The notes beneath the pieces are model-generated. The model saw only the letters and a list, made by a program, of their open reading frames with translations, was not told where the DNA came from and searched no databases. This document shows, piece after piece, positions 1,538 through 32,000 of a stretch of DNA of 32,000 nucleotides (its first letter is position 1; the number at the start of each line of letters is the position of its first letter). A program made the position numbers and the translations under genes. The stretch comes from Erysipelotrichaceae bacterium. Its GTDB lineage: Bacteria > Bacillota_I > Bacilli_A > Erysipelotrichales > Erysipelotrichaceae. Location: the NCBI GenBank assembly GCA_963663995.1, contig OY760660.1, forward strand, positions 1,470,001-1,502,000. The letters are read 5' to 3'.

Positions 1538-2368
1538 CTATTTGAACCGTGTTCGATAGGAACAGTGTTGGCATAGATCCTCAACTAAAGTGTTTTGTTT
1601 AAAGCCATTGGTTAGACTTATTAAACGCTTTGAACTTAAAATTTGATCCAATGACGATTCATAGATATTACCGATTTTTAAATGTGCTTGTGGATCTAAA
1701 CAACATGGTGTAACAGAACCGTCATTAAGAATAGCCAACATCTTTGTTCCTGCATGACATCGTCCTATATTTGAAACATGAGCAGAATTTAAACTTGGCC
1801 ATTCGAATTGATCATCTAAATCAATGGTTAAATTGTCTGTGTAACGAAGTCTCTTCTTTCCAATCGATTGAATAAGGCTAGAATCAAGATCAGGTAATAA
1901 ACGATTAAGAATAAGATTCATTTTTTCTGATTTTTGATTCCATATGCGTAAAAAAACGGATGCGTTTGACTGAAGAATACTTTCTTTAAGTTCAAGTAAC
2001 TGTTTGAGATGTTGATTAAATTTCACTTCATCAAACTCTTCCCAAGCATGAAGTGATATTGAAAGCTGAGCTAATGATGGATGTTTTAGAAAAGCATCAG
2101 ATAAGTTATAAAGTAGAGTACCATTTGTGACGATGTGCACTTTTAACTGATATTGATAAGCAATGTCACAAAATTGAAGTAGAAGAGGATGAGTTAAAGG
2201 TTCACCTTGAACATGTAGATAGATATGTTTTGTGTGAGTATGAATAGACTTAATAATATGAGTGAATTGATCAATCGACATTAATCCAGCTTCTTTTGTA
2301 GAAGGTGGACAGAAGGAGCAACTTAGATTACAACGATTGGTAATCTCAATGTAGACTCGTTTAATCAT
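1538..2368 (-). CDS. Radical SAM enzyme with a C-terminal Cys-rich (SPASM/twitch-like) region (276 aa)
   Basis: N-terminal CX3CX2C (NRCNLSCSFCP). GEPL glycine-rich SAM motif (VQGEPLTHP). C-terminal CHAGTKMLAILNDGSVTPCC fits CX12GX4C, followed by CQHC near the C-terminus. The start overlaps the yaaA stop by 8 nt. Confidence 0.8.
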   Translation of the reverse strand: MIKRVYIEITNRCNLSCSFCPPSTKEAGLMSIDQFTHIIKSIHTHTKHIYLHVQGEPLTHPLLLQFCDIAYQYQLKVHIVTNGTLLYNLSDAFLKHPSLAQLSISLHAWEEFDEVKFNQHLKQLLELKESILQSNASVFLRIWNQKSEKMNLILNRLLPDLDSSLIQSIGKKRLRYTDNLTIDLDDQFEWPSLNSAHVSNIGRCHAGTKMLAILNDGSVTPCCLDPQAHLKIGNIYESSLDQILSSKRLISLTNGFKQNTLVEDLCQHCSYRTRFK

Positions 2369-3080
2369 TTATATAGCGCACAAAGATACTTTGTGTTTGG
2401 TCGTGGGATTCTAAAATATAATCTTTTAAACATAGATGTCTTAAGTCATCAATAGTTTCTAGCTTACTAAGAATAGCCCATTCAAGTGTTTGACCACGAG
2501 CTTTCTTTGCTTCAGCTGAATTGATTGTTCTTTTCCCATTTTTCTCATCATAGAAATAGAGAGTATGGAGACAAGGATGTTGAATAAATTGGCTAAATTC
2601 TTCAGAAGCTATATTTAAAATCCAGTCTTCATTTTTAAAATAGTTTGATAGTTTATTTGCCCAAAACTTCTTTAAATTCAATTGTTTAAAAGACATGACA
2701 AAATCTAAACGATAGGGCCAGATTGGTGTTAAAGGACTAAGTACACCATACATTGCAGATAGTATGCTTAAATGTGATTCAAGATAATCAAGTTGGTCTT
2801 GATTGTAAGCTGAAATATGTAATTGGCGATAAGCTAAACCATTATAGAGTTCAATGGCATTGTACTTTGGCTGACTAGTATTGAAATTATGATATAAGTC
2901 ATAGGTCTCTTGCGTTAATTTATCGCTGATTTTCATACTTTGTTGAATGCTTTTTTTTGATAATTTGCTAAGTTTATTAAATAACTGTAGAGCTTCTGTT
3001 TCAAAGAATAATGATTTTTCATAAGAGCTTTCTTCACAGTTGAAATTTAAGGTTTTGGCGGGAGATAAAATAATTTTCAT
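2361..3080 (-). CDS. yaaA: YaaA/UPF0246 (DUF328) peroxide-stress family protein (239 aa)
   Basis: Characteristic N-terminus MKIILSPAKTLN (the SPAK motif) and a length typical of the family. Followed on the same strand by the overlapping radical SAM gene. Confidence 0.85.
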   Translation of the reverse strand: MKIILSPAKTLNFNCEESSYEKSLFFETEALQLFNKLSKLSKKSIQQSMKISDKLTQETYDLYHNFNTSQPKYNAIELYNGLAYRQLHISAYNQDQLDYLESHLSILSAMYGVLSPLTPIWPYRLDFVMSFKQLNLKKFWANKLSNYFKNEDWILNIASEEFSQFIQHPCLHTLYFYDEKNGKRTINSAEAKKARGQTLEWAILSKLETIDDLRHLCLKDYILESHDQTQSIFVRYIND

Positions 3081-3146: not shown

Positions 3147-4365
3147 CCTCAATTGTAAAATGAACTCGTCCACCCGTTAGAAAAAGAAAAGCACCATTCA
3201 TAAGAATCCTAGTATCATTAAGTTGCGAAACACATGAGAAAGGACTTATGAACGATGCAACACAATGATATAACGACTAGAACTAAAGGACAACATTTAA
3301 GTTTGTCTGAACGGATAGAAATTCAAACACAGAAGCGATGTGGCTATTCTAATCGGCTGATCGCGAAAAATCTTAATCGAAGTCACTCAACGATTAACGA
3401 CGAAATCAAACGTGGTTCAGCGATTCAAAAGAAGATTGTGAATGGTTATACTTATACCACTGAACTCTATTACGCAGAGACGGGTCAAATCGTTTATGAG
3501 CGACATCGCTTAAACAGTCGACCACAGCCCAAGCTAGCTAAGGTAAAAGCCTTTATAGATTACGCTACACAAAAGATTAGTGTTGATAAGTGGTCACCTG
3601 ATATTGTCGTCGGACGAGCTTTAAAAGAAGGACATTTTGATCGGTCTGAAGCAGTCTGTGCTAAGACCTTATACAACTATATTGATAGAGGTTTAATCAA
3701 GGATTTGAATAACTTAAATCTATGGTTGAAACTTAGACGAAAGACAAAGTCTAAGAAAGCACCTAAACATCGTAGAGTCTTAGGTCAATCGATAGATTGT
3801 AGACCTCAAGAAATCAATGACAGAAGCACATTTGGTCATTGGGAAATAGATACTGTCATCGGAAAGAAGAAAAAGGATGAACCCGTTCTGCTTACTATGA
3901 CAGAAAGGCTAACTCGTTATCAAATCATTCTGAAGATTAAAGGCAAATATGAAGAAGCCGTTAATGAAGGACTTAAACAATTAAACCTAGATCATCCGCA
4001 TTTTCCACAAATCTTTAAATCCATTACCAGTGATAATGGCTCAGAGTTTGCAGGTTTATCAGAGCTTATACAAGATCTAAGTGATGTTTACTTCGCTCAT
4101 CCCTATTCATCTTGGGAAAGAGGAACGAATGAAAGACACAATGGAATAATTAGACGTTCTATTCCTAAAGGTAAATCATTAAAAACGATATCTGACTTAA
4201 CGATCGACCAAGTGGTTCATTCCATGAACCACTTACCACGTAAGATACTCAATTATCAAACACCCACTGAATCCATTCTTTTCCACTACAATCAAATTCA
4301 AACAACTTAATGATTCTTGATTTTCTTTATTTCAAAAAGTGGACGGGTTGATATTGCAATTTAGG
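3147..4365 (+). mobile_element. Intact IS30-family insertion sequence (1219 bp)
   Basis: A single transposase ORF is bounded by imperfect 27-bp terminal inverted repeats. IRL is 3147-3173 (cctcaattgtaaaatgaactcgtccac). The reverse complement of IRR 4339-4365 is cctaaattgcaatatcaacccgtccac. The two match at 22 of 27 positions. Flanked by a 13-bp direct repeat. Confidence 0.85.
3255..4310 (+). CDS. IS30-family DDE transposase (351 aa)
   Basis: N-terminal HTH region (LSLSERIEIQTQKRCGYSNRLIAKNLNRSHSTINDEIKRG). DDE/rve core with HWEIDTV, ITSDNGSEF and WERGTNERHNGIIRR, the typical IS30 signature. Confidence 0.9.
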   Translation: MQHNDITTRTKGQHLSLSERIEIQTQKRCGYSNRLIAKNLNRSHSTINDEIKRGSAIQKKIVNGYTYTTELYYAETGQIVYERHRLNSRPQPKLAKVKAFIDYATQKISVDKWSPDIVVGRALKEGHFDRSEAVCAKTLYNYIDRGLIKDLNNLNLWLKLRRKTKSKKAPKHRRVLGQSIDCRPQEINDRSTFGHWEIDTVIGKKKKDEPVLLTMTERLTRYQIILKIKGKYEEAVNEGLKQLNLDHPHFPQIFKSITSDNGSEFAGLSELIQDLSDVYFAHPYSSWERGTNERHNGIIRRSIPKGKSLKTISDLTIDQVVHSMNHLPRKILNYQTPTESILFHYNQIQTT

Positions 4366-4427: not shown

Positions 4428-4943
4428 ATGGGTAAATCAGCAGTCGCAATATTAAATTTAGATGTAGAGAAGTTAATTAATACCTTAAATGAGGCTTTAG
4501 CAGAAGAGTGGTTAGCGTATTATCAATATTGGGTTGGAGCACGCTTGATGGAAGGACCTATGCGGAATGAAGTTGAAACAGAACTTCTTATTCATGCAAC
4601 AGAGGAACTTGCACATGCAGATTTGATTGTTAATCGTATTATTCAATTAGGTGGTACTCCTTTAACCAATCCAGCACAATGGTTTGATAAAGCTAAATGT
4701 GCATATGAAGATCCAACGGATCCATATGTTGAAGTTATCCTTGAACAAAATCTAAAGGGTGAAAGATGTGCAATAGCGAGATATCAACAATTGGCTCAAA
4801 TGACCGATGGCAAAGATCATGCAACACATCAAATGGTGACACAAATTCTTAATGACGAATTAGAACATGAAGAAGACATTGAATCATTTATCGCAGATAT
4901 TCAAAGACTTAAAGACGATATTCGTAAAATTCGTTTTGAGTAG
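4428..4943 (+). CDS. Ferritin-like four-helix-bundle protein, Dps-like (DPSL / bacterioferritin-type di-iron site) (171 aa)
   Basis: Two ExxH motifs (EELAH, ELEH) plus upstream Glu residues (LAEEW, ILEQN) typical of a bacterioferritin-type ferroxidase centre. Mini-ferritin size. Two Cys (KAKCAY, GERCAI) 23 residues apart. GGGAGG Shine-Dalgarno at 4413-4418. Confidence 0.75.
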   Translation: MGKSAVAILNLDVEKLINTLNEALAEEWLAYYQYWVGARLMEGPMRNEVETELLIHATEELAHADLIVNRIIQLGGTPLTNPAQWFDKAKCAYEDPTDPYVEVILEQNLKGERCAIARYQQLAQMTDGKDHATHQMVTQILNDELEHEEDIESFIADIQRLKDDIRKIRFE

Positions 4944-7929: not shown

Positions 7930-8295
7930 TTATTTTTTAGTCATTGATTCACATAGATGAACTAACGTTTTAGATACGAGCTCTTTAGATGAATCATCTA
8001 AATCATAGTATTCTTTGAATTGTTGAGAACTTAAAAAAGCATAAATAAAATCAAGCGGCGATCCATAATGGCCGCTTTCTTCTAGCAAAATAGGATCGAC
8101 TAATAAATCACTAACCTTTACATTGAAGTACGCTGCAAGTTTTTGGATTGCTTCAGGGTCAGGTGATGTTAGACCTAACTCCCACTTTGAGATAGTCTGT
8201 TGAGAATAATTTAAAGCCTTAGCCAAATCTTCTTGGTTAAGGTCTTTTCTTATTCTAATTCTTTTTAATCGTTGGGCAAAATCATTTCGATCCAT
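7930..8295 (-). CDS. XRE/Cro-C1-type helix-turn-helix transcriptional regulator (121 aa)
   Basis: N-terminal HTH_3-like segment FAQRLKRIRIRKDLNQEDLAKALNYSQQTISKWELGLTSP. About 55 aa of C-terminal domain of unknown function. Its stop codon abuts the prmC stop with no intergenic base. Confidence 0.85.
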   Translation of the reverse strand: MDRNDFAQRLKRIRIRKDLNQEDLAKALNYSQQTISKWELGLTSPDPEAIQKLAAYFNVKVSDLLVDPILLEESGHYGSPLDFIYAFLSSQQFKEYYDLDDSSKELVSKTLVHLCESMTKK

Positions 8296-8318: not shown

Positions 8319-8371
8319 AGTGTATATACGCTTATATACAACTAAAAGGTGTTATGAGTTGTATATACAAC
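8319..8371. promoter_or_regulatory. Divergent promoter/operator region with three related palindromic sites
   Basis: A perfect 14-bp palindrome GTTGTATATACAAC lies at 8358-8371. Related sites are AGTGTATATACGCT (8319-8332) and CGCTTATATACAAC (8329-8342). The -10 elements are TATAAT on the minus strand (8303-8308) and TGgTAGTAT on the plus strand (8375-8383). Confidence 0.5.
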
Positions 8372-8389: not shown

Positions 8390-8926
8390 ATGATTAAACT
8401 ATTAAGCTATTATCTGCTTCAAGGGTTGAGTATTGTCTTGATTTTAATAATGACACAGATAAGTCTAAGTACAAGAATACTTTTATTATCTGTTTACTGT
8501 ATTTTAATTATCTCTATAAAATCTCGTTTCTTCTATGCGAAGGATCGAAAGTTATTTTCGACATCATTTTGTTTAATAGTGTTGATATTAACTAGCTATT
8601 ATTCACTATCCGTGTTTTATAGCCTCATCTTGATAATTGTTAGTGCAGGTTCATTTTTTGAGAAGGTTATAATTGATAAAAATCTTTTATCTAAGTTAGA
8701 ACAAGTTAATGAATACATTGAACTTAGTATCTTTTCATTATCGATTGATTCTAAGAAAAATGATGATTTAAAATTTTTTCCATTACAAAGTAGAGAGTAT
8801 GCGTATCTAAGAGATCTTCTTATTTATAAGTATCCACAGTCTAATTATTCTAATAAATTTTCTACTGGAGATATAAAGTATGAGATTTTTACTTTGAAAG
8901 TCTTTGAATTAGCCTCTAAAAATTAG
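8390..8926 (+). CDS. Hypothetical multi-pass membrane protein with a soluble C-terminal region (178 aa)
   Basis: About four hydrophobic segments in the first ~90 aa (LLSYYLLQGLSIVLILI, ILLLSVYCILIISI, FCLIVLILTSYY, YSLILIIVSAGSFF), then ~85 aa of hydrophilic tail. No recognisable motif and no Shine-Dalgarno. Very AT-rich (hand counts 12/60 and 14/60 G+C in lines 8461 and 8701). Confidence 0.55.
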   Translation: MIKLLSYYLLQGLSIVLILIMTQISLSTRILLLSVYCILIISIKSRFFYAKDRKLFSTSFCLIVLILTSYYSLSVFYSLILIIVSAGSFFEKVIIDKNLLSKLEQVNEYIELSIFSLSIDSKKNDDLKFFPLQSREYAYLRDLLIYKYPQSNYSNKFSTGDIKYEIFTLKVFELASKN

Positions 8927-9566: not shown

Positions 9567-10019
9567 ATGGAAATTGCTTTAGCATGTGATCATGGGGCTT
9601 TTGAACATAAGGAAGCGCTCAAGAAACATTTAGAAGAAAAAGGCTATACGGTAAACGACTTTGGACCTTTTACAGAAGAGTCTGTTGATTATCCTGATAC
9701 TGTTTATCCAGCCTGTGATTATGTACGAACACATCCTGAAAGTTTGGGAATTGTAATGTGTGGTACAGGTATTGGTGCAAGTATTGTGGCCAATAAAGTT
9801 AAGGGAATTAGATGTGCATTAGTATATGATGTAGAAGTTGCGAAAATAACACGTGAACACAATAACTCAAACGTACTTGCCAGTGGTGGACGTTTAGTGA
9901 GTGTAGAAAAGATGTTAGAGATTGCAGATATGTGGTTATCAACGGCGTTTAGCGAGGATGCTCGTCATCAACGTCGTATCGATAAAATTTCAACAGTGGA
10001 GGAAAAAGAAGATGAATGA
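9567..10019 (+). CDS. rpiB: Ribose-5-phosphate isomerase B (RpiB/LacA/LacB family)
   Basis: [35 protein letters not shown], 150 aa. Sits in the ywlF position. Confidence 0.9.
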
Positions 10020-11223
10020 TAAGGCTTTAGAACAAGCAATACAAAAAGAAGCAGAACGTCAACATTTAAACATTGAACTTATTGCTTCTGAAAACTATGT
10101 GTCAGAAGATGTTTTAGAAGCAGTGGGGAGTATTTTAACTAATAAATATGCAGAAGGTTATCCTGGTAAACGATACTATGGTGGCTGTGAAGAAGTAGAT
10201 GTAGCTGAGCAATTAGCGATTGATCGTGCCTGTGAAATTTTTGGTGCAGAACACGCGAATGTACAACCACACTCTGGCTCACAAGCAAACATGGGTGTTT
10301 ACTTCGCAATCTTAGAACCAGGCGATACTGTTTTAGGTATGGACTTAGCTGCAGGTGGTCACTTAACCCATGGTCATCCATTAAGTTTCTCTGGTAAACT
10401 TTATGATTTCAAATCTTATGGTGTAGATAAAGAAACACATCGTATTGATTATGATGCATTAGAAAAACAAGCTTTAGAAGTTAAGCCAAAACTAATTGTT
10501 GCTGGAGCAAGTGCTTATCCATTTATCCTAGATTTCCCACGCTTTAAAGAAATCGCTGATAAAATAGGTGCTTATTTAATGGTTGATATGGCTCACATTG
10601 CAGGTTTAGTTGCAGCAGGCGTGCATCCATCTCCAGTACCTTATGCTGATTTTGTAACAACCACAACTCATAAGACTTTAAGAGGTCCTCGTGGGGGTAT
10701 GGTTTTATGTAAAAAAGAACATGCAGCAATTTTAGATAAAGTTGTTTTCCCTGGAATTCAAGGGGGTCCGCTTATGCATGTTGTTGCCGGTAAAGCAGCT
10801 TGTTTCTATGAAGCTTTACAACCTGAATTCAAAACATATGCAAAACAAGTTGTTGATAATATGCAAGCATTGGTTGATGAACTTAAAAAAGAAGGTTTCA
10901 CTTTAGTGGGTGATGGTTCAGAAAATCATATGTGTTTAGTAAATGTTAAAGCGTCTGTTGGTTTAAGTGGTAAGAAATCTGAAAAGATTTTAGATGAAGT
11001 TGGTATTACATGTAATAAAAACTCAATCCCATTTGACCCAGAAAAACCATTTGTTACATCAGGTATTCGTTTAGGATCTGCCGCTATGACAACACGTGGC
11101 TTTAAAGAAGAAGAATTTAGACAAGTGGCAAGATGGATTAAACGTGCATTAACAAATGCTGACAATGAAGAAGCATTAGCTGAAATTAAAAAAGAAGTTG
11201 TTGTGCTTACATCTAAACACTAA
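10012..11223 (+). CDS. glyA: Serine hydroxymethyltransferase
   Basis: [40 protein letters not shown] (PLP lysine). I place the start at ATG 10012 (MNDKALEQ) because GGAGG at 9998-10002 lies 9 nt upstream. The track's 9922 start is an in-frame read-through inside rpiB. Confidence 0.95.
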
Positions 11224-27384: not shown

Positions 27385-27417
27385 AAGTGTAGAATGGTAT
27401 TTCTACACTTTTTTTTA
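27385..27417 (+). terminator. Strong rho-independent terminator after lysS
   Basis: aagtgtagaa (27385-27394) pairs with ttctacactt (27401-27410), a 10-bp perfect stem with a 6-nt loop, followed by a run of T residues. Confidence 0.8.
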
Positions 27418-27447
27418 TTCATATTTATTAAAATTCGGATAATCTTG

Positions 27448-27462: not shown

Positions 27463-29046
27463 ATGGAAAAATATGATGTCATTGTTGTAGGTGGCGGAAT
27501 GGCTGGATTGACCGCAACCAGTTATTTAAGTTCAAAATACTCGACTATTCTCATTGAAAAAGAATCAACTCTAGGTGGACTTGTTGGTTCATTTGAACTT
27601 GATGGTTTTGTATTTGACAAAGGTGCAAGAGGAATCATAGATTCTGGAATTGTTATGCCGATGTTAAGACAACAAGGCGTTGAAATAGATTTTTTAGAAA
27701 ATCCAATTAAGATGATAGTTGAAGAAGAATCTGTTGATTTGAAAAACAAAGAAGATATTATAAAGTACGGTGATTTGCTTAAAAGAGTTTATCCAGATCA
27801 AATAAGTGAAATTGATCAGATTGTTAAAGAAATTCAAAAAGTAATGACTTATATGGACGTTTTATATGGAATAGAAAACCCATTATTTATGCCTAAACCA
27901 TATTCAAAGGAATATTTAAAAGAAACTTTATTGCCATGGATGATTAAATTTTTACCAAACATTTATAAGGCAATGAAAATGATGGAACCGATAAATGTAT
28001 ATCTAAAGAAAATTTCAAAATCAGAGAGTTTAGTTGATATTATTACCCAACATTTCTTTGAAGAAACACCAACTTTTTTTGCATTATCTTACTTCTCACT
28101 CTTTCTTCAATATCAATATCCTAAAGGTTCAACTCAAAGTTTAGTTGATGCGCTTATAAAAGTTATTTTAAACAACCACACAAAAATTCATACGAGTGAA
28201 GAAGTTTTAAGCATTGACATAAAAAACTCTGTACTTTCAACAAATCTGAACTCATATCAATTTAAAAAGATTGTTTGGGCAGCTGATGTAAATTTAATGT
28301 ACAAACTCATTAATCAATCTGATTTAGAAAGCAGAAATTTAAGAAATCTAGAGAAGATGCTTCAAAAATATAAAAGTTTAAAAGGAGCAGATTCTATATT
28401 AAGCACTTTTGTACAATGTGAAATAGATCCATCATATTTTAAAGAATTATTTGGACCCCATTCATTTTATACTGAACGAAAAAAGGGACTGAGTCATATA
28501 AAATTAGAAGATATTAAAAATGGTCAAGATTTCATTAATGATAAGAGAGAAATATTTAAATGGCTAAAAGATTATCTCTTATATAATACCTTTGAAGTCT
28601 CTATACCTGTTTTAAGAGATGCAAATCTCGCGCCAAAAGGGAAAACTGGTTTAATAATATCAACGCTTTTAGATTATGGATTAACTAAACATATCGAAGA
28701 AAGTGGCTATTATGAAGAATTTAAGGATTTTATTGCGGATGAAATTATTCAAATATTTAGTAAAAAGATTCCACAATTAAAGAATAAGTGTTTAAAGGTA
28801 ATTGTTTCAACACCACTTACCATACAAAAAAAGACTTATGCTCATGAAGGAAGTGTTTCAGGATATTCTTTTTCTAATCATCCGTTCCCTGCAGAGTATC
28901 AATTTTTAAAAGTAAGTCAATCTGTTAAAACACCATTTAAGAATATTAAACAAGCAGGACAATTTGCCTTCAACCCAGCAGGTGTCCCAGTGGCAATATT
29001 AACGGGTAAACTAGCAGCTGATCAAATCATAAAGGAACTAAAATAA
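27463..29046 (+). CDS. FAD-dependent oxidoreductase, phytoene-desaturase/CrtI-like (COG1233-type) family (527 aa)
   Basis: N-terminal Rossmann dinucleotide motif KYDVIVVGGGMAGLTATSYL ... IEKESTLGG. C-terminal FAD segment typical of the CrtI/amine-oxidase superfamily (IKQAGQFAFNPAGVPVAILTGKLAADQI). Confidence 0.75.
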   Translation: MEKYDVIVVGGGMAGLTATSYLSSKYSTILIEKESTLGGLVGSFELDGFVFDKGARGIIDSGIVMPMLRQQGVEIDFLENPIKMIVEEESVDLKNKEDIIKYGDLLKRVYPDQISEIDQIVKEIQKVMTYMDVLYGIENPLFMPKPYSKEYLKETLLPWMIKFLPNIYKAMKMMEPINVYLKKISKSESLVDIITQHFFEETPTFFALSYFSLFLQYQYPKGSTQSLVDALIKVILNNHTKIHTSEEVLSIDIKNSVLSTNLNSYQFKKIVWAADVNLMYKLINQSDLESRNLRNLEKMLQKYKSLKGADSILSTFVQCEIDPSYFKELFGPHSFYTERKKGLSHIKLEDIKNGQDFINDKREIFKWLKDYLLYNTFEVSIPVLRDANLAPKGKTGLIISTLLDYGLTKHIEESGYYEEFKDFIADEIIQIFSKKIPQLKNKCLKVIVSTPLTIQKKTYAHEGSVSGYSFSNHPFPAEYQFLKVSQSVKTPFKNIKQAGQFAFNPAGVPVAILTGKLAADQIIKELK

Positions 29047-29481
29047 ATGTTAGATTTAAATGCACAAACAGTTAGAGATCTCTGGTCAAAAACGTATAAC
29101 GATAAAGATAAGCCAGACTGGTCGCATATCTTTCCTTACTATGATGAGAATATTGTTTTCATGGATTCCATTCAAAAAGTCGAGGGGTTTGAAGACTTTA
29201 AGGCGATGTGTGAGCGATTAACTGATCGTTGCGAAACCCTAAGCATGGATTTGTCTGAAGTTATTAAAGAAGGTGATCTCATTATCTTAGAATGGAAAAT
29301 GACCATGGAATTTAAAAAGACACCAAGCACTCCGATTTTCGGGGCAAGTTTTTTACGTTTAAATGACAAAGGGAAAATTGTTTCACAACGCGATTATTAT
29401 GATTTATGGGGTGACATCTTTAACGGTATACCAAAATTCAAACCTCATTATCGAAAATTTATGAAGAAACGATTTGGTTAA
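29047..29481 (+). CDS. SnoaL-like / NTF2-fold protein (144 aa)
   Basis: Size and pattern typical of SnoaL_2/NTF2-like cone folds (YDENIVFMDSIQKVEGFEDF ... GDLIILEWKMTMEF ... GASFLRLNDKGKIVSQRDYYD). The start is the very next base after the upstream stop codon. Confidence 0.6.
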   Translation: MLDLNAQTVRDLWSKTYNDKDKPDWSHIFPYYDENIVFMDSIQKVEGFEDFKAMCERLTDRCETLSMDLSEVIKEGDLIILEWKMTMEFKKTPSTPIFGASFLRLNDKGKIVSQRDYYDLWGDIFNGIPKFKPHYRKFMKKRFG

Positions 29482-29483
29482 TC

Positions 29484-30398
29484 ATGAACTATCCAGATGA
29501 ACTTATTTTTTTAAAGAATAGAAATGCAAAGCAACGAATTAGTCAATTTTCACTTAATGGGAAAACGATTGTATTAACGGGTGCTACTTCAGGAATCGGA
29601 CGAGAAACAGCTTTTCGTCTTGCTCAAGATTCAATACATTTAGCTATTATCATAAGAGATCTTCAAAAAGGAATGGAATTAAAGAGTTCGATTGAACATT
29701 TAACGGAATCAAAAGTTAGTGTTTTTATTGCTGATTTCTCAGATTTAAAATCTGTTTCAAAAGTTGCGGATGAAATAAAAACAAAATTAGATCATATAGA
29801 TGTATTAATACACAATGCAGGAATTCATTCGACAAAAAAAATAATAACAAAAGATGGGTTTGAACAATGCTTTCAAATTAATTATTTAGCATCTTATTTA
29901 CTAACTCAAAAACTTTTGCCATTATTAAATACATCTAAAGAGTCTACGATACTATATGTTAATTCTGAAGGACATCGATTTTCAAGTTTTGATGTTACTG
30001 ACTATAATTTCAATAAACATCACTATACTGGATTAAGGGCTTACGGATCTTCAAAAACAGCTCAGCTATTGAGTGTTTTAGTATTAAATGAAGATAAAAA
30101 TTATAAAAACATGAGATTTTTGTGCATGCATCCTGGGGATGTTAAAAGCGATATTGGCAAAAATAATGGGTTCTTGTATCGTCTATTTAGTAAATTATTT
30201 ATACAACCAATGCTCAGAGATCCGAAAACAAGTGCGATAGCTATTCATTGTTTATTATCAGATCCATTTTATCGAGAGCAACATGAACAATTCTATCATT
30301 TAACAATACCAGAAATCGCAGCGAATCATGCGCGAGATTATGTTAAAGCTCAAGAGCTTATCGAACTATCGAATAAACTAATAAATGATTTTATTTAA
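29484..30398 (+). CDS. Classical short-chain dehydrogenase/reductase (SDR), retinol-dehydrogenase-like (304 aa)
   Basis: Cofactor motif TGATSGIGRETA, NAG (HNAGI), catalytic YGSSK (YxxxK). 2-nt gap to the upstream gene. Confidence 0.85.
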   Translation: MNYPDELIFLKNRNAKQRISQFSLNGKTIVLTGATSGIGRETAFRLAQDSIHLAIIIRDLQKGMELKSSIEHLTESKVSVFIADFSDLKSVSKVADEIKTKLDHIDVLIHNAGIHSTKKIITKDGFEQCFQINYLASYLLTQKLLPLLNTSKESTILYVNSEGHRFSSFDVTDYNFNKHHYTGLRAYGSSKTAQLLSVLVLNEDKNYKNMRFLCMHPGDVKSDIGKNNGFLYRLFSKLFIQPMLRDPKTSAIAIHCLLSDPFYREQHEQFYHLTIPEIAANHARDYVKAQELIELSNKLINDFI

Positions 30399-30465
30399 TT
30401 AATAAAGACAAATTAATGTATCGAAGTTATTAATTACCAAGTACAATTATCAAAAAAGCAAACTA

Positions 30466-30480
30466 GTTGTTTTATACAAC
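30466..30480. promoter_or_regulatory. Inverted repeat GTTGT-TTTAT-ACAAC upstream of the MarR gene (candidate operator)
   Basis: 5-bp arms with a 5-bp spacer, 35 nt upstream of the preferred MarR start. Followed by TAATAAT (a -10-like element) and AAGAGG. Confidence 0.3.
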
Positions 30481-30514: not shown

Positions 30515-30937
30515 ATGCTATTTTGTGATATTAGTATTCAACATAGATACGGTAAAAATAAATTGGATGAAATGCTTTTTAAGTATGGTTTAGACTGGTC
30601 AAGAATGACAGTTATTCTAGTCGTGTCAGAAGTACCAGGAATAGAGCAAAATAAATTAATTCCTTTTTTACAGACAGATAAAGCTAATGTTTCAAAATTG
30701 TTGAAAAAGATGGTTAATGAGAACTTAATCATTTTAAATCATAATGCAATAGATAAACGAATTAACAAGTGTTATTTGACAGAAAAGGGCAATGAATTCG
30801 TGCCTAAAATGAATGAAATTTTAAGTGCTTGGGAATCGATTCTTTTTTCAGGAATAAAAGAAGATGAGCTTCAAGTTTATCTAAAGGTTAGTCAGAAAGT
30901 ATCAAATAATCTTTTGCCAAATTGGGAGAATAAATAA
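30515..30937 (+). CDS. MarR-family winged-helix transcriptional regulator (140 aa from ATG 30515)
   Basis: MarR-like wHTH: GIEQNKLIPFLQTDKANVSKLLKKMVNENLIILNHNAIDKRINKCYLTEKG. AAGAGG at 30503-30508 supports ATG 30515 rather than the track's TTG at 30467. The stop overlaps the next ATG (TAATG). Confidence 0.8.
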   Translation: MLFCDISIQHRYGKNKLDEMLFKYGLDWSRMTVILVVSEVPGIEQNKLIPFLQTDKANVSKLLKKMVNENLIILNHNAIDKRINKCYLTEKGNEFVPKMNEILSAWESILFSGIKEDELQVYLKVSQKVSNNLLPNWENK

Positions 30938-32000
30938 TGGGAATTCAAGGGAAAACTCTTTATGGGTTAATTTTATCTGGTGCAAATAATATTGTAGTAA
31001 ATGAAAATTTGTTAAATAAGATAAATGTTTATCCAGTACCCGATGGGGATACAGGTACAAATTTATCGCTTACAATGAATCAGATTCTTCTTGAGGCAAA
31101 AGAATTTGAACATGTTTTTATGCAAATCGAAAATATTGCAGAGATTGCTCTTAAAAATGCATATGGTAATTCAGGTATGATTTTTGCAGAATATTTAAGT
31201 GGTATGTCAGATTCTTTAATAAACCAAAAAGAGATACTAAAAATTGATTTGATAAAAGCCTTTAAAAATGCGTATTCTAAAGCACATAAATCGGTAGCAC
31301 AACCTAAAGAGGGAACAATTTTAAGTGTTATGAAGATTTGGTCCGAATTATTAGAAACCTCAATACATGATGAATTAGAACACTTATTTAACAGTAATCT
31401 GGAAAAACTTTATAAGTCAGTCGAAAATACAAAAAATCAAATGAAAATTCTTAGAGACAATAATGTTGTAGATGCCGGCGCTATGGCTTTCTTCTTTTTT
31501 ATTGAAGGAATGACTAAGTTCTTGAAAAATGGATTATCAATGAATCTCGAATTCAAAGCATCAAAAATGGAATTGATTAGTGAACCGTTAAAGTCCCTTG
31601 ATATTGGTGCTTATAGATATTGTTGTCAATATCAAGTAAAAGGAAATATTGATGTTAAAGAACTAGAAAAAGAGATTAATCCATATGGTGATTCAATTGT
31701 CATCCATCAAGATAATTCAAACATTAGTATTCATATGCATGCAAATGATCCTGCAATGCTTATGCAAAAACTTTTATCTATAGGTCCTGTTCTAAAACAC
31801 AAGATAGACGACATGTATTTGCAAACTCATATGAAGCATAAGCCAAAATCCAAAATTGCTATTTTAACTGATTCTATTGCAGATATACCTTCTACACTAA
31901 TTGATGATAACCAAGTCGCTGTATTACCTTTAAATATTATTATCGACTCAATTGTCTATAAGGATAAAATCACGATGACAGCTGACTACTTCTATAATTA
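30937..32000 (+). CDS. Dak2 (FakA-like) domain fused to a DegV (FakB-like) fatty-acid-binding domain; 3'-truncated by the window edge
   Basis: My own translation is open from ATG 30937 to the window end. The Dak2 part has VYPVPDGDTGTNLSLT, AYGNSGMIFAEY, PKEGTILSV, NNVVDAGAMAF. The FakA central-domain-like part has YRYCCQY ... YGDSIVIHQDNSNISIHMHANDP. From about residue 307 there is a DegV N-terminus: KIAILTDSIADIPSTLIDDNQVAVLPLNIIIDSIVYKD. It is absent from the ORF track because no stop is reached. Confidence 0.8.
   Translation, partial: MGIQGKTLYGLILSGANNIVVNENLLNKINVYPVPDGDTGTNLSLTMNQILLEAKEFEHVFMQIENIAEIALKNAYGNSGMIFAEYLSGMSDSLINQKEILKIDLIKAFKNAYSKAHKSVAQPKEGTILSVMKIWSELLETSIHDELEHLFNSNLEKLYKSVENTKNQMKILRDNNVVDAGAMAFFFFIEGMTKFLKNGLSMNLEFKASKMELISEPLKSLDIGAYRYCCQYQVKGNIDVKELEKEINPYGDSIVIHQDNSNISIHMHANDPAMLMQKLLSIGPVLKHKIDDMYLQTHMKHKPKSKIAILTDSIADIPSTLIDDNQVAVLPLNIIIDSIVYKDKITMTADYFYN

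Follow-up and report, generated by a model that had tools for sequence, protein, structure and literature searches.

A three-gene operon for a CrtI-fold flavoenzyme, an NTF2-fold protein and a short-chain dehydrogenase in anaerobic bacteria, a possible lipid-chain tailoring module linked to photo-oxidative stress genes

A phytoene-desaturase-like flavoenzyme that works on lipid chains is UfaD, a fatty-acyl desaturase of phospholipid chains, which makes furan fatty acids together with UfaO (DUF1365) and UfaM (PMC7380195). In Pseudomonas, the class II LitR light regulons contain phrB, a short-chain dehydrogenase/reductase (SDR), a flavin adenine dinucleotide (FAD) oxidoreductase and ufaM, in a cluster that is induced by light (PMC9758184). 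The singlet-oxygen-induced set of Chlamydomonas includes proteins of the DUF1365, DUF2177 and DUF1295 families, cyclopropane fatty acid (CFA) synthases and SOUL proteins (PMC4067076), and DegV, DUF2177 and DUF1295 are characteristic neighbours of heliorhodopsin in Firmicutes and Chloroflexi (Chazan et al., bioRxiv 10.1101/2021.02.16.431466). Here we describe an operon of three genes, encoding a CrtI-fold flavoenzyme, an NTF2-fold protein and a classical SDR, from an Erysipelotrichaceae bacterium (GenBank assembly GCA_963663995.1, contig OY760660.1, positions 1,470,001 to 1,502,000; this whole stretch of 32,000 nucleotides is called the window). An earlier note on this DNA, made from the letters alone, had proposed the three genes as a candidate tailoring module for lipids, fatty acids or steroids. 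We find that the trio is a widespread cassette of anaerobes whose NTF2 protein has homologues in photo-oxidative stress clusters of Proteobacteria, a link to light and photo-oxidative stress genes that the note had missed.

The three open reading frames (ORFs) are intact (Table 1). The stop codon of the flavoenzyme gene (TAA, 29044-29046) abuts the ATG of the NTF2 gene (29047) with a 0-nt gap, and a 2-nt gap (TC) separates the TAA of the NTF2 gene (29479-29481) from the ATG of the SDR gene (29484). The flavoenzyme, NTF2 and SDR genes constitute a single operon. Inspection of the ORFs, the junctions and the hairpin bore out the placement given before, with a new unit starting after the lysS terminator, and the three assignments (CrtI-like FAD enzyme, SnoaL/NTF2 protein and classical SDR) were upheld both by Pfam profiles and by fold searches with AlphaFold and Foldseek, the model of the 144-aa protein being an NTF2 cone. 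The reading as one operon and the idea of a module tailoring hydrophobic chains both hold. The block had also been described as more AT-rich than the backbone, which proved not to be meaningful. The G+C content is 0.295 for the CrtI-like gene, 0.298 for the SDR gene and 0.349 for the NTF2 gene, against a mean of 0.344 (sd 0.035) for the genes of the window, tilS and other genes of the window are equally low, and the G+C content at third codon positions (GC3) of the trio is ordinary; a compositional island was thus rejected, the values lying within about 1.4 sd of the gene mean.

Relatives were found in at least 557 species genomes (one genome per species) and at least 583 metagenome contigs, all of anaerobe lineages and from at least eight phyla. 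The best 80 of the at least 557 genomes, essentially all of anaerobe lineages, include Erysipelotrichia, many Clostridia, Anaerolineae, Spirochaetota, Thermotogae, WOR-3, Atribacterota, Cryosericota, Actinomycetota and Bacteroidales, and the habitats are environmental (groundwater, sediments, digesters and oil reservoirs) and not gut-specific. Youngiibacter fragilis 232.1 is one of the cultured carriers. The NTF2 and SDR genes adjoin the flavoenzyme gene in about 50 of the 82 genome loci anchored on the flavoenzyme. Three arrangements occur, namely flavoenzyme, NTF2 and SDR genes in one direction, a flavoenzyme gene facing an NTF2-SDR pair on the opposite strand, and NTF2, SDR and flavoenzyme genes in one direction, and the NTF2 gene directly precedes the SDR gene in all of them. 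A second and independent sample, 80 metagenome contigs anchored on the NTF2 protein, showed an SDR directly downstream in 46 of the 54 loci with room for it and a flavoenzyme in 13 of the 17 with room on both sides; three more NTF2-anchored contexts and three close relatives show a concordant cassette. In a census by Pfam family, the 135 genes around the trio in at least 40 lineages proved to be essentially random neighbours, which indicates that the cassette is self-contained. The trio is therefore a real, widespread and self-contained cassette, syntenic across phyla. It has probably spread horizontally. Profile, structure-database and literature searches found no characterised orthologues of the three proteins, and the literature search found no paper on a CrtI-like/NTF2/SDR trio. 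With the synteny and the NTF2 cone, this means that none of the three findings named in the earlier note as refuting it was made.

The flavoenzyme matches the Pfam families Amino_oxidase (55.8 bits) and NAD_binding_8 (46.8 bits), both past the curated cut-offs, and carries GxGxxG at residues 10-15, within VVGGGMAGL at residues 8-16. It fails every NCBIfam model of a carotenoid desaturase or isomerase (47-66 bits against cut-offs of 238-640), including crtI_fam (TIGR02734, 62.5 against 238.1 bits), CrtD (66.3 against 549.7) and carot_isom (47.5 against 586.9). The AlphaFold model (predicted local distance difference test, pLDDT, 86.8) shows the two-domain FAD fold of the CrtI type, and its top PDB match in Foldseek is the carotenoid desaturase 4rep (E 1.4e-23, template-modelling score (TM) 0.69/0.74), followed by CrtI 4dgk (E 1.9e-18). 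Profile scores and predicted structure together place it in the CrtI fold and in no described family. More than 2692 homologues are present in the protein collection and 134 columns are invariant across 16 sequences. In plasmid records only remote matches, from Bacillus, came up for the flavoenzyme. The SDR scores 107 bits with adh_short, past the curated cut-off, has 2107 homologue clusters, and keeps TGATSGIG, NAG and N133/S151/Y187/K191 in 48 orthologues, with an invariant NSEGHRF segment; it is a classical SDR with intact catalytic motifs. Its best NCBIfam models, PRK06197 (145.5 bits against 268) and PRK06196 (138.1 against 414), are of the retinol dehydrogenase/WWOX-like kind and both stay below cut-off. 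Some members of the family are named retinol dehydrogenase-13 in the JGI annotation, and the PDB search gave a weak match to 17-beta-hydroxysteroid dehydrogenase 11 (17-beta-HSD11).

The NTF2 protein is the best conserved member of the cassette. It passes the gathering thresholds of SnoaL_2 (PF12680, 47.4 bits against 27) and DUF2358 (PF10184, 33.4 against 24.3), matched no family of NCBIfam, and has 2845 homologue clusters. Its AlphaFold model (pLDDT 84.4) is an alpha+beta cone that matches an epoxide hydrolase like limonene epoxide hydrolase (LEH), proteins like ketosteroid isomerase (KSI), SnoaL2 and KSI itself, with TM values of 0.6-0.78. Across phyla its identity is 52-67%, compared with 40-54% for the flavoenzyme and 39-51% for the SDR; mean identity is 63%, and 45 columns are invariant in 20 sequences. 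Such extreme conservation suggests tight protein contacts, and the invariant Tyr17, Tyr32, Asp40, Asp116 and Asp119 would be compatible with an acid-base site. In alignments made to assign a catalytic type, just the short C-terminal strand motif RDY[YF]DL aligns with LEH (hhalign E 0.0014, probability 17%), an enzyme with an Asp-Arg-Asp triad and Tyr/Asn, and none was significant with KSI, whose catalytic residues are Tyr14, Asp38 and Asp99.

Queried by tblastn with this NTF2 protein, plasmid and chromid records yielded proteins of 22-30% identity in Vibrionales, Aeromonas and Pseudoalteromonas. The gene order in Salinivibrio is DUF523/DUF1722, MerR, phrB, NTF2, SDR, NAD(P)/FAD-dependent oxidoreductase, DUF1365, CFA-synthase family, DUF2878, CHI-like and DUF3833, and Pseudoalteromonas has this block behind genes for a sigma-70 factor and a ChrR anti-sigma-E factor; examples of the triad are N8M53_RS15610-15600 of Salinivibrio kushneri and FIU82_RS16925-16935 of Pseudoalteromonas THAF3. 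The full gamma-proteobacterial block was seen on chromids at L171:5753-14965 and L173:3412-12903. Homology between the NTF2 proteins of anaerobes and gamma-proteobacteria is supported by a pairwise E of 5e-14 and an hhalign probability of 98.4%, the Salinivibrio protein used as a query detects 133 of the anaerobe loci, and 16 residues are invariant across both groups (Tyr17, Lys22, Tyr32, Phe38, Asp40, Gly47, Trp83, Met85, Lys91, Gly99, Leu103, Arg115, Asp116, Tyr117, Asp119 and Pro129). Orthology of the SDR and the flavoenzyme with their proteobacterial counterparts was rejected, as these align only over their Rossmann N-termini; in BLASTP, the flavoenzyme aligns with the UfaD-type protein of Salinivibrio only at residues 6-47. 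DUF1365 (UfaO), CFA-synthase-like methylase, DUF2878, CHI-like and DUF3833 proteins gave no match in the 166 anaerobe loci, and neither DUF1365 nor a methylase of the UfaM/CFA-synthase kind was found in the window. Because UfaO and UfaM are absent, the trio, as judged from its gene content, is not a furan fatty acid pathway. The anaerobe cassette appears instead to be a distant relative or variant of the proteobacterial NTF2-SDR-flavoenzyme triad, and our literature search on the sigmaE-ChrR/LitR phrB block found no assigned function for the NTF2 and SDR genes. Of the three analogies offered in the earlier note, that with UfaD is the closest, the NTF2 protein being homologous to the gene that precedes the SDR and UfaD-type flavoenzyme genes, whereas no evidence favours the bai pathway or the conjugated linoleic acid (CLA) pathway of Lactobacillus.

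A survey of the neighbours in the 166 anaerobe loci covered 1.24 Mb of flanks, in which a single-copy gene is expected 0.49 times. The recurrent accessories were CrtO (22 loci), family 2 glycosyltransferases (GT2, 20), heliorhodopsin (8), flavodoxin (8), DUF523/DUF1722 proteins of the YbgA type (6), photolyase (4), DUF1295 (4), B12-binding proteins (3) and DUF2177 (2), besides FakA-DegV fusions, and the enrichment that these counts imply is rough, since the loci are not independent, some being closely related, and some families are multi-copy. Locus L090, the closest relative with a long contig, is 66% (flavoenzyme), 81% (NTF2) and 67% (SDR) identical to the window, and its order is trio, convergent photolyase, MarR, FakA-DegV, DUF1295/Steroid_dh-like, DUF2177, YbgA-like and B12-binding. 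Compared with the window, its MarR is 46% identical and its Dak2-FakA_M-DegV fusion (591 aa) is 78% identical. The region L090:3146-9499 resembles a light regulon, with the photolyase gene divergent from MarR, a DUF1295/Steroid_dh-like membrane protein, a YbgA-like DUF1722 protein and a B12-binding protein of 206 aa without a helix-turn-helix (HTH) domain; the MarR, FakA-DegV, DUF1295 and DUF2177 genes overlap by 4 nt each. Elsewhere, DUF2177 and heliorhodopsin genes adjoin the trio (L024). In two related Erysipelotrichaceae, genes for a B12-binding_2/B12-binding protein of 361 aa and, after it, a GGDEF protein stand about 4.5 kb upstream of the trio (L002:2315-4431 and L007:654-1736), and this pair may be the output of a cobalamin photoreceptor.

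The adjacency of a MarR gene and a fatty-acid-kinase-like fusion gene, and the question of whether they travel with the trio, had been raised before. Both lie downstream of the trio in the window and are kept in L090, but MarR and Dak2-DegV genes are absent from the 82 distant loci, so the link of the trio to the fatty-acid-kinase-like neighbour is lineage-restricted. Given the conservation in L090 and a further gene order in L108, the interest in this neighbour was reasonable. In L108 (7646-11013) a DUF1295-like gene comes directly after the NTF2 gene, and then the gene of a FakA-DegV-like fusion of 602 aa, 31% identical to that of the window. The 18-kb locus contains neither an SDR nor a CrtI-like gene; the NTF2 protein can thus associate with fatty-acid genes without its two usual partners.

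Based on these observations we hypothesize, with a probability of about 0.45, that the operon is an oxygen-independent module for tailoring or repairing lipid chains, tied to photo-oxidative stress and most likely working on unsaturated membrane-lipid chains. The operon, the folds and motifs, the neighbourhoods and the NTF2 homology are the ground from which we infer a reaction order, a substrate class and a stress link. The SDR would interconvert a hydroxyl and a carbonyl group on the lipid chain. The NTF2 protein would act either as an acid-base catalyst of the KSI/LEH type, shifting, hydrating or dehydrating a neighbouring double bond, or as an obligate subunit presenting the substrate; its Tyr17, Tyr32, Asp40, Arg115, Asp116 and Asp119 are deeply invariant. 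The CrtI-fold flavoenzyme would add, remove or isomerise a C=C bond, with electrons probably coming from the adjacent flavodoxin in some hosts or, in a sister clade described below, from a CrtISO-like partner with an Fe-S tail. The cassette would be the anaerobe counterpart of the triad flanked by photolyase on one side and, on the other, by the genes for furan fatty acids (UfaO/DUF1365 and a CFA synthase like UfaM), and since that triad belongs to photo-oxidative stress clusters, the likeliest job is the remodelling or repair of unsaturated membrane-lipid chains in a stress response. The substrate is most probably a fatty acyl chain or free fatty acid, because a self-contained cassette spread across phyla needs a universal substrate, because the sole demonstrable homology, that of the NTF2 protein, is to a fatty-acid cluster, and because FakA-DegV and CrtQ-type enzymes both handle lipid carboxylates. 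The product may then pass to the fatty-acid kinase (FakA-DegV) in some lineages and to a CrtQ/CrtO-type pair of glycosyl and acyl transferases in others.

Several points weigh against this proposal. Light and stress genes stand beside only about 10-15% of the loci, and the independence of the accessory counts is overstated. The trio is carried by anaerobes, many of which come from groundwater or dark digesters, and neither in the window nor in L090 was the palindrome that precedes MarR found 5' of the trio. The NTF2 protein is the only one of the three with demonstrable homology to the proteobacterial triad, and a carotenoid-type substrate is what the commonest accessories (CrtO, GT2 and CrtISO-like) and the closest structural matches would suggest instead. 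In the UfaD operon of R. sphaeroides the SDR is presumably RSP1087. Deletion of RSP1087, RSP1088 or RSP1089 in that organism resulted in no fatty-acid phenotype (PMC7380195).

In a neighbour-joining tree, a sister clade of the flavoenzyme (41-45% identity) is nested inside the family. In its loci the NTF2 and SDR genes are replaced by a gene for a CrtISO-like flavoprotein of 614 aa (carot_isom, 251 bits), whose Cys-rich C-terminal tail is weakly Fer4_20-like, and next come genes for a CrtQ-like GT2 and a CrtO acyltransferase (Pfam CrtO, E 3.7e-32). Hosts of this clade include Acetobacterium paludosum, Parasporobacterium, Petrotoga and Anaerolineaceae, and no backbone synthase was found near the cluster. 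We observed the cluster, whose CrtI-like member has 523 aa, at L075:5082-12071, in L034, L054, L062 and L068, and at 6117-11232 of L043 (A. paludosum). In Anaerolineaceae a heliorhodopsin gene lies 0.3 kb upstream of it and an unclassified 267-aa membrane protein is encoded downstream; this recurrent protein (f11) was considered as a relative of TspO/CrtK and rejected, as it has no BLASTP or Pfam similarity. Mixed clusters, in which the trio genes occur together with the CrtO/GT2 set, were found in L012, L040, L049, L060, L113, L122, L129, L133 and L136. In the census of the 135 flanking genes the top family was CrtO (glycosyl-carotenoate acyltransferase), with three members, tied with the generic GFO_IDH_MocA and the sole pathway-specific family of top frequency.

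These findings support an alternative in which the cassette tailors an isoprenoid or carotenoid-type membrane glycolipid, for example of the C30 class. The flavoenzyme would desaturate, saturate or oxidise a polyene, the NTF2 protein would hydrate a double bond or carry the pigment, and the SDR would set an alcohol or carbonyl; a sugar and an acyl group would afterwards be added by CrtQ-like and CrtO-like enzymes, on the pattern of staphyloxanthin or the glucoside esters of heliobacteria. Carotenoid desaturases and isomerases are the best structural and profile relatives of the flavoenzyme, the sister clade with its CrtISO-like protein, GT2, CrtO and nearby heliorhodopsin in Anaerolineaceae fits the same chemistry, as do the mixed clusters and the rank of CrtO in the census, and the closest relatives of the SDR act on retinoids and polyprenols. 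On the other hand, no SQS_PSY motif or CrtM-like match was detected in the ORFs of 83 sequences (82 loci and the window), and no squalene, phytoene or dehydrosqualene synthase occurs among the 135 flanking genes. A spread into at least eight phyla without a backbone synthase needs a universal substrate, every carotenoid equivalog score is far under its cut-off, and the proteobacterial NTF2 homologue sits in a fatty-acid cluster, not a carotenoid one. The cultured carriers of the trio are not known to be pigmented, which also counts against this alternative. The earlier statement that a carotenoid role is not supported agrees with the lack of a backbone synthase in the 83 sequences, but it was too strong given the CrtISO-like, CrtQ-like and CrtO genes of the sister clade and the mixed clusters. 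We regard a carotenoid-type substrate as doubtful, although it has to be taken seriously.

A bolder form of the lipid-repair proposal, which seems unlikely as it stands, is that the NTF2-SDR-flavoenzyme triad is an ancient and pan-bacterial means of oxygen-independent repair or re-tailoring of photo-oxidised membrane lipids (the allylic hydroxy and keto-ene products of singlet oxygen), accompanied in anaerobic Firmicutes and Chloroflexota by FakA-DegV, DUF1295, DUF2177 and heliorhodopsin. If true, it would give the first concrete enzymology for the 'lipid remodelling' linked to heliorhodopsin and would account for the SDR and NTF2 genes that lack an assignment in the sigmaE/LitR regulons of Proteobacteria.

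Somewhat more unlikely still is a light-independent detoxification or biohydrogenation of exogenous unsaturated fatty acids, in which the SDR would oxidise a hydroxy fatty acid, the NTF2 protein would bring a double bond into conjugation and the flavoenzyme would reduce the enone, paralleling CLA-DH, CLA-DC and CLA-ER of Lactobacillus with unrelated folds. The hosts are fermentative anaerobes of digesters and sediments rich in long-chain fatty acids. Flavodoxin-like genes adjoin the flavoenzyme gene in eight loci, which suggests reductive chemistry, FakA-DegV fusions adjoin the cassette in the window, L090 and L108, and the fold of the NTF2 protein matches KSI, which performs the same shift from a beta,gamma to an alpha,beta enone. 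However, neither a fatty-acid hydratase (MCRA) nor another known biohydrogenation gene recurs among the 135 flanking genes, and the photolyase, YbgA, heliorhodopsin and CrtO/GT2 neighbours would be left unexplained; no sequence relation to the Lactobacillus enzymes was found, nor was any expected.

The affinity of the SDR with the retinol dehydrogenase/WWOX group, to which DHRSX belongs, suggests a further explanation, which we consider very unlikely. The cassette would saturate the alpha-isoprene unit of an allylic isoprenoid alcohol (of the polyprenol, phytol or farnesol type) through its aldehyde, with the SDR taking the alcohol and aldehyde steps and the flavoenzyme the C=C reduction, as in the three-step DHRSX/SRD5A3/DHRSX route to dolichol, which is documented (PMC11250103). 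A membrane reductase of the DUF1295/Steroid_dh type recurs near the cassette, and the universality of polyprenols suits a cassette that brings no backbone gene. Nevertheless, the explanation rests purely on analogy, the SDR is under the PRK06197 cut-off, no polyprenyl-phosphate glycosyltransferase or glycan genes recur nearby, and the FakA-DegV and CrtO links are not explained. Finally, A-ring metabolism of steroids or bile acids, with the SDR as hydroxysteroid dehydrogenase, an NTF2 protein of the KSI/BaiE type and the flavoenzyme as delta-reductase or dehydrogenase, agrees in its enzyme logic with the KSI match and the weak 17-beta-HSD11 match, but is highly improbable given the environmental, not gut-specific distribution, the lack of any NCBIfam match for the NTF2 protein, the absence of other bai or steroid genes (BaiE-type dehydratase, BaiCD/BaiH flavoproteins, CoA ligase or transferase among them) from the 135 flanking genes, and the membership of the known bacterial steroid reductases and dehydrogenases in the old yellow enzyme (OYE) or KstD families and not in CrtI (compare PMC12238238).

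The remaining features of the locus are listed in Table 1. A palindrome of the form AGTTGT-N5/6-ACAAC stands 5' of MarR in both the window and L090; MarR was considered as the regulator of the trio and rejected, since the palindrome precedes only MarR in both. From the sequence, ATG 30516, with the ribosome-binding site AAAGAGG, is more likely to be the MarR start than TTG 30467, and an ORF called mechanically from the latter would contain its own probable operator. No terminator-like site was found in the interval between the SDR and MarR genes, and the start of the FakA-DegV gene overlaps the MarR stop codon (TAATG).

Table 1. Positions (in the window) and identification of the features in and around the operon.
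Feature	Position	Strand	Basis and remarks
lysS intrinsic terminator	27385..27418	+	10-bp stem, 6-nt loop, T-run; a new transcription unit begins after it
CrtI-fold FAD flavoenzyme, 527 aa	27463..29046	+	Pfam and fold; separate subfamily, anaerobe lineages only
NTF2-fold protein (SnoaL_2/DUF2358), 144 aa	29047..29481	+	most conserved member of the trio, hub of the neighbourhood
Classical SDR, 304 aa	29484..30398	+	TGxxxGIG, NAG, N133-S151-Y187-K191 tetrad
Palindrome AGTTGT-N5-ACAAC, probable MarR operator	30465..30480	+	5' of MarR; same motif 5' of MarR in L090
MarR-family regulator, about 140 aa from ATG 30516	30516..30937	+	Pfam MarR/MarR_2; lineage-specific neighbour outside the conserved cassette
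FakA (Dak2 and middle domain)-DegV fusion, fatty-acid-kinase-like	30937..32000	+	Pfam Dak2, FakA-like_M, DegV; clipped by the end of the window

The window as a whole is a housekeeping region of a Firmicutes-type genome (34.5% G+C) with murA, tdk, prfA, prmC, tsaC, rpiB, glyA, upp, the atp operon, mreB, tilS, hpt, ftsH, hslO, dus and lysS. The AGTTGT-N5-ACAAC palindrome occurs twice in it (8357-8371 and 30465-30480) against 0.08 copies expected by chance, and the first copy is flanked by the gene of a divergent XRE-type regulator (7930-8295, minus strand) and by an ORF of 178 aa (8390-8926) with 26% G+C and no Pfam match. The glyA ORF (9922-11223), called from TTG 9922, overlaps rpiB by 98 nt and its start is probably placed too far upstream. 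A 351-aa ORF with an HTH_38 domain (3255-4310), which we take to be typical of IS30-type transposases, has a GC3 of 0.30, among the highest of the window, and may be a mobile element. At 1538-3080 (minus strand) and 4428-4943, a short way apart, are genes for a radical SAM/SPASM protein, the peroxide-stress protein YaaA and a ferritin-like protein, which are related to oxidative stress although the host is apparently an anaerobe.

Among the known systems used for comparison, BaiE is an NTF2-fold enzyme and both CLA-DH and BaiA are SDRs, while the CLA isomerase and reductase and the bai flavoproteins have folds that differ from those of the trio enzymes. The CLA-HY/CLA-DH/CLA-DC/CLA-ER system of Lactobacillus plantarum and the bai operon follow a similar logic (dehydrogenase, isomerase or dehydratase, ene-reductase) with no relation at the sequence level, and their hydratase, CoA ligase and transporter genes do not recur among the 135 genes flanking the trio. 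The likeness to the CrtI/CrtD/CrtISO family lies in the overall fold and in the clustering of relatives with CrtQ-like and CrtO-like genes, whereas the flavoenzyme scores far under the family cut-offs, no backbone synthase is near any locus searched, and the constant NTF2 and SDR partners have no known counterpart in carotenoid pathways. UfaD of R. sphaeroides (RSP1091) is a member of the FAD amine-oxidase/phytoene-desaturase superfamily with a lipid-chain substrate and an operon that includes small accessory proteins, but the flavoenzyme of the window is about 100 aa longer, is similar only in the FAD-binding N-terminus and lacks the partners UfaM and UfaO. Moreover, the hosts of the trio are anaerobes, whereas UfaO needs O2 and products of UfaD were seen only in aerobic cultures (PMC7380195). 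The set of DegV, DUF2177 and DUF1295 found around heliorhodopsin is the strongest genomic clue to the function of that protein; the same three families stand beside the trio in L090, and the FakA-DegV fusion in the window, although the window has no heliorhodopsin and the association is seen in a minority of trio loci, and the searched text of bioRxiv 10.1101/2021.02.16.431466 does not name a CrtI-like/NTF2/SDR trio. The closest parallel is the gamma-proteobacterial triad, which has the same Pfam architectures (SnoaL_2/DUF2358, adh_short and Amino_oxidase/NAD_binding_8), the order NTF2, SDR, flavoenzyme seen in many anaerobe loci, and photolyase and YbgA (DUF523/DUF1722) neighbours in common with the cassette, and differs in the length of the SDR (241 against 304 aa) and of the flavoenzyme (419 aa, UfaD type, against 527 aa, CrtI type). 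The enzyme families themselves are known; what stands out is the breadth of the cassette, the homology to the sigmaE/LitR clusters, the ties to heliorhodopsin-associated lipid genes, and the occurrence of CrtQ/CrtO tailoring genes in organisms not known as carotenoid makers. The three proteins are small, soluble and easy to express, and learning what they act on could bring to light a lipid modification of a new, oxygen-independent kind and open the lipid hypothesis of heliorhodopsin to testing. The cassette joins three separate literatures, those of the furan fatty acid and singlet-oxygen regulon, of the heliorhodopsin gene set and of staphyloxanthin-type CrtQ/CrtO tailoring.

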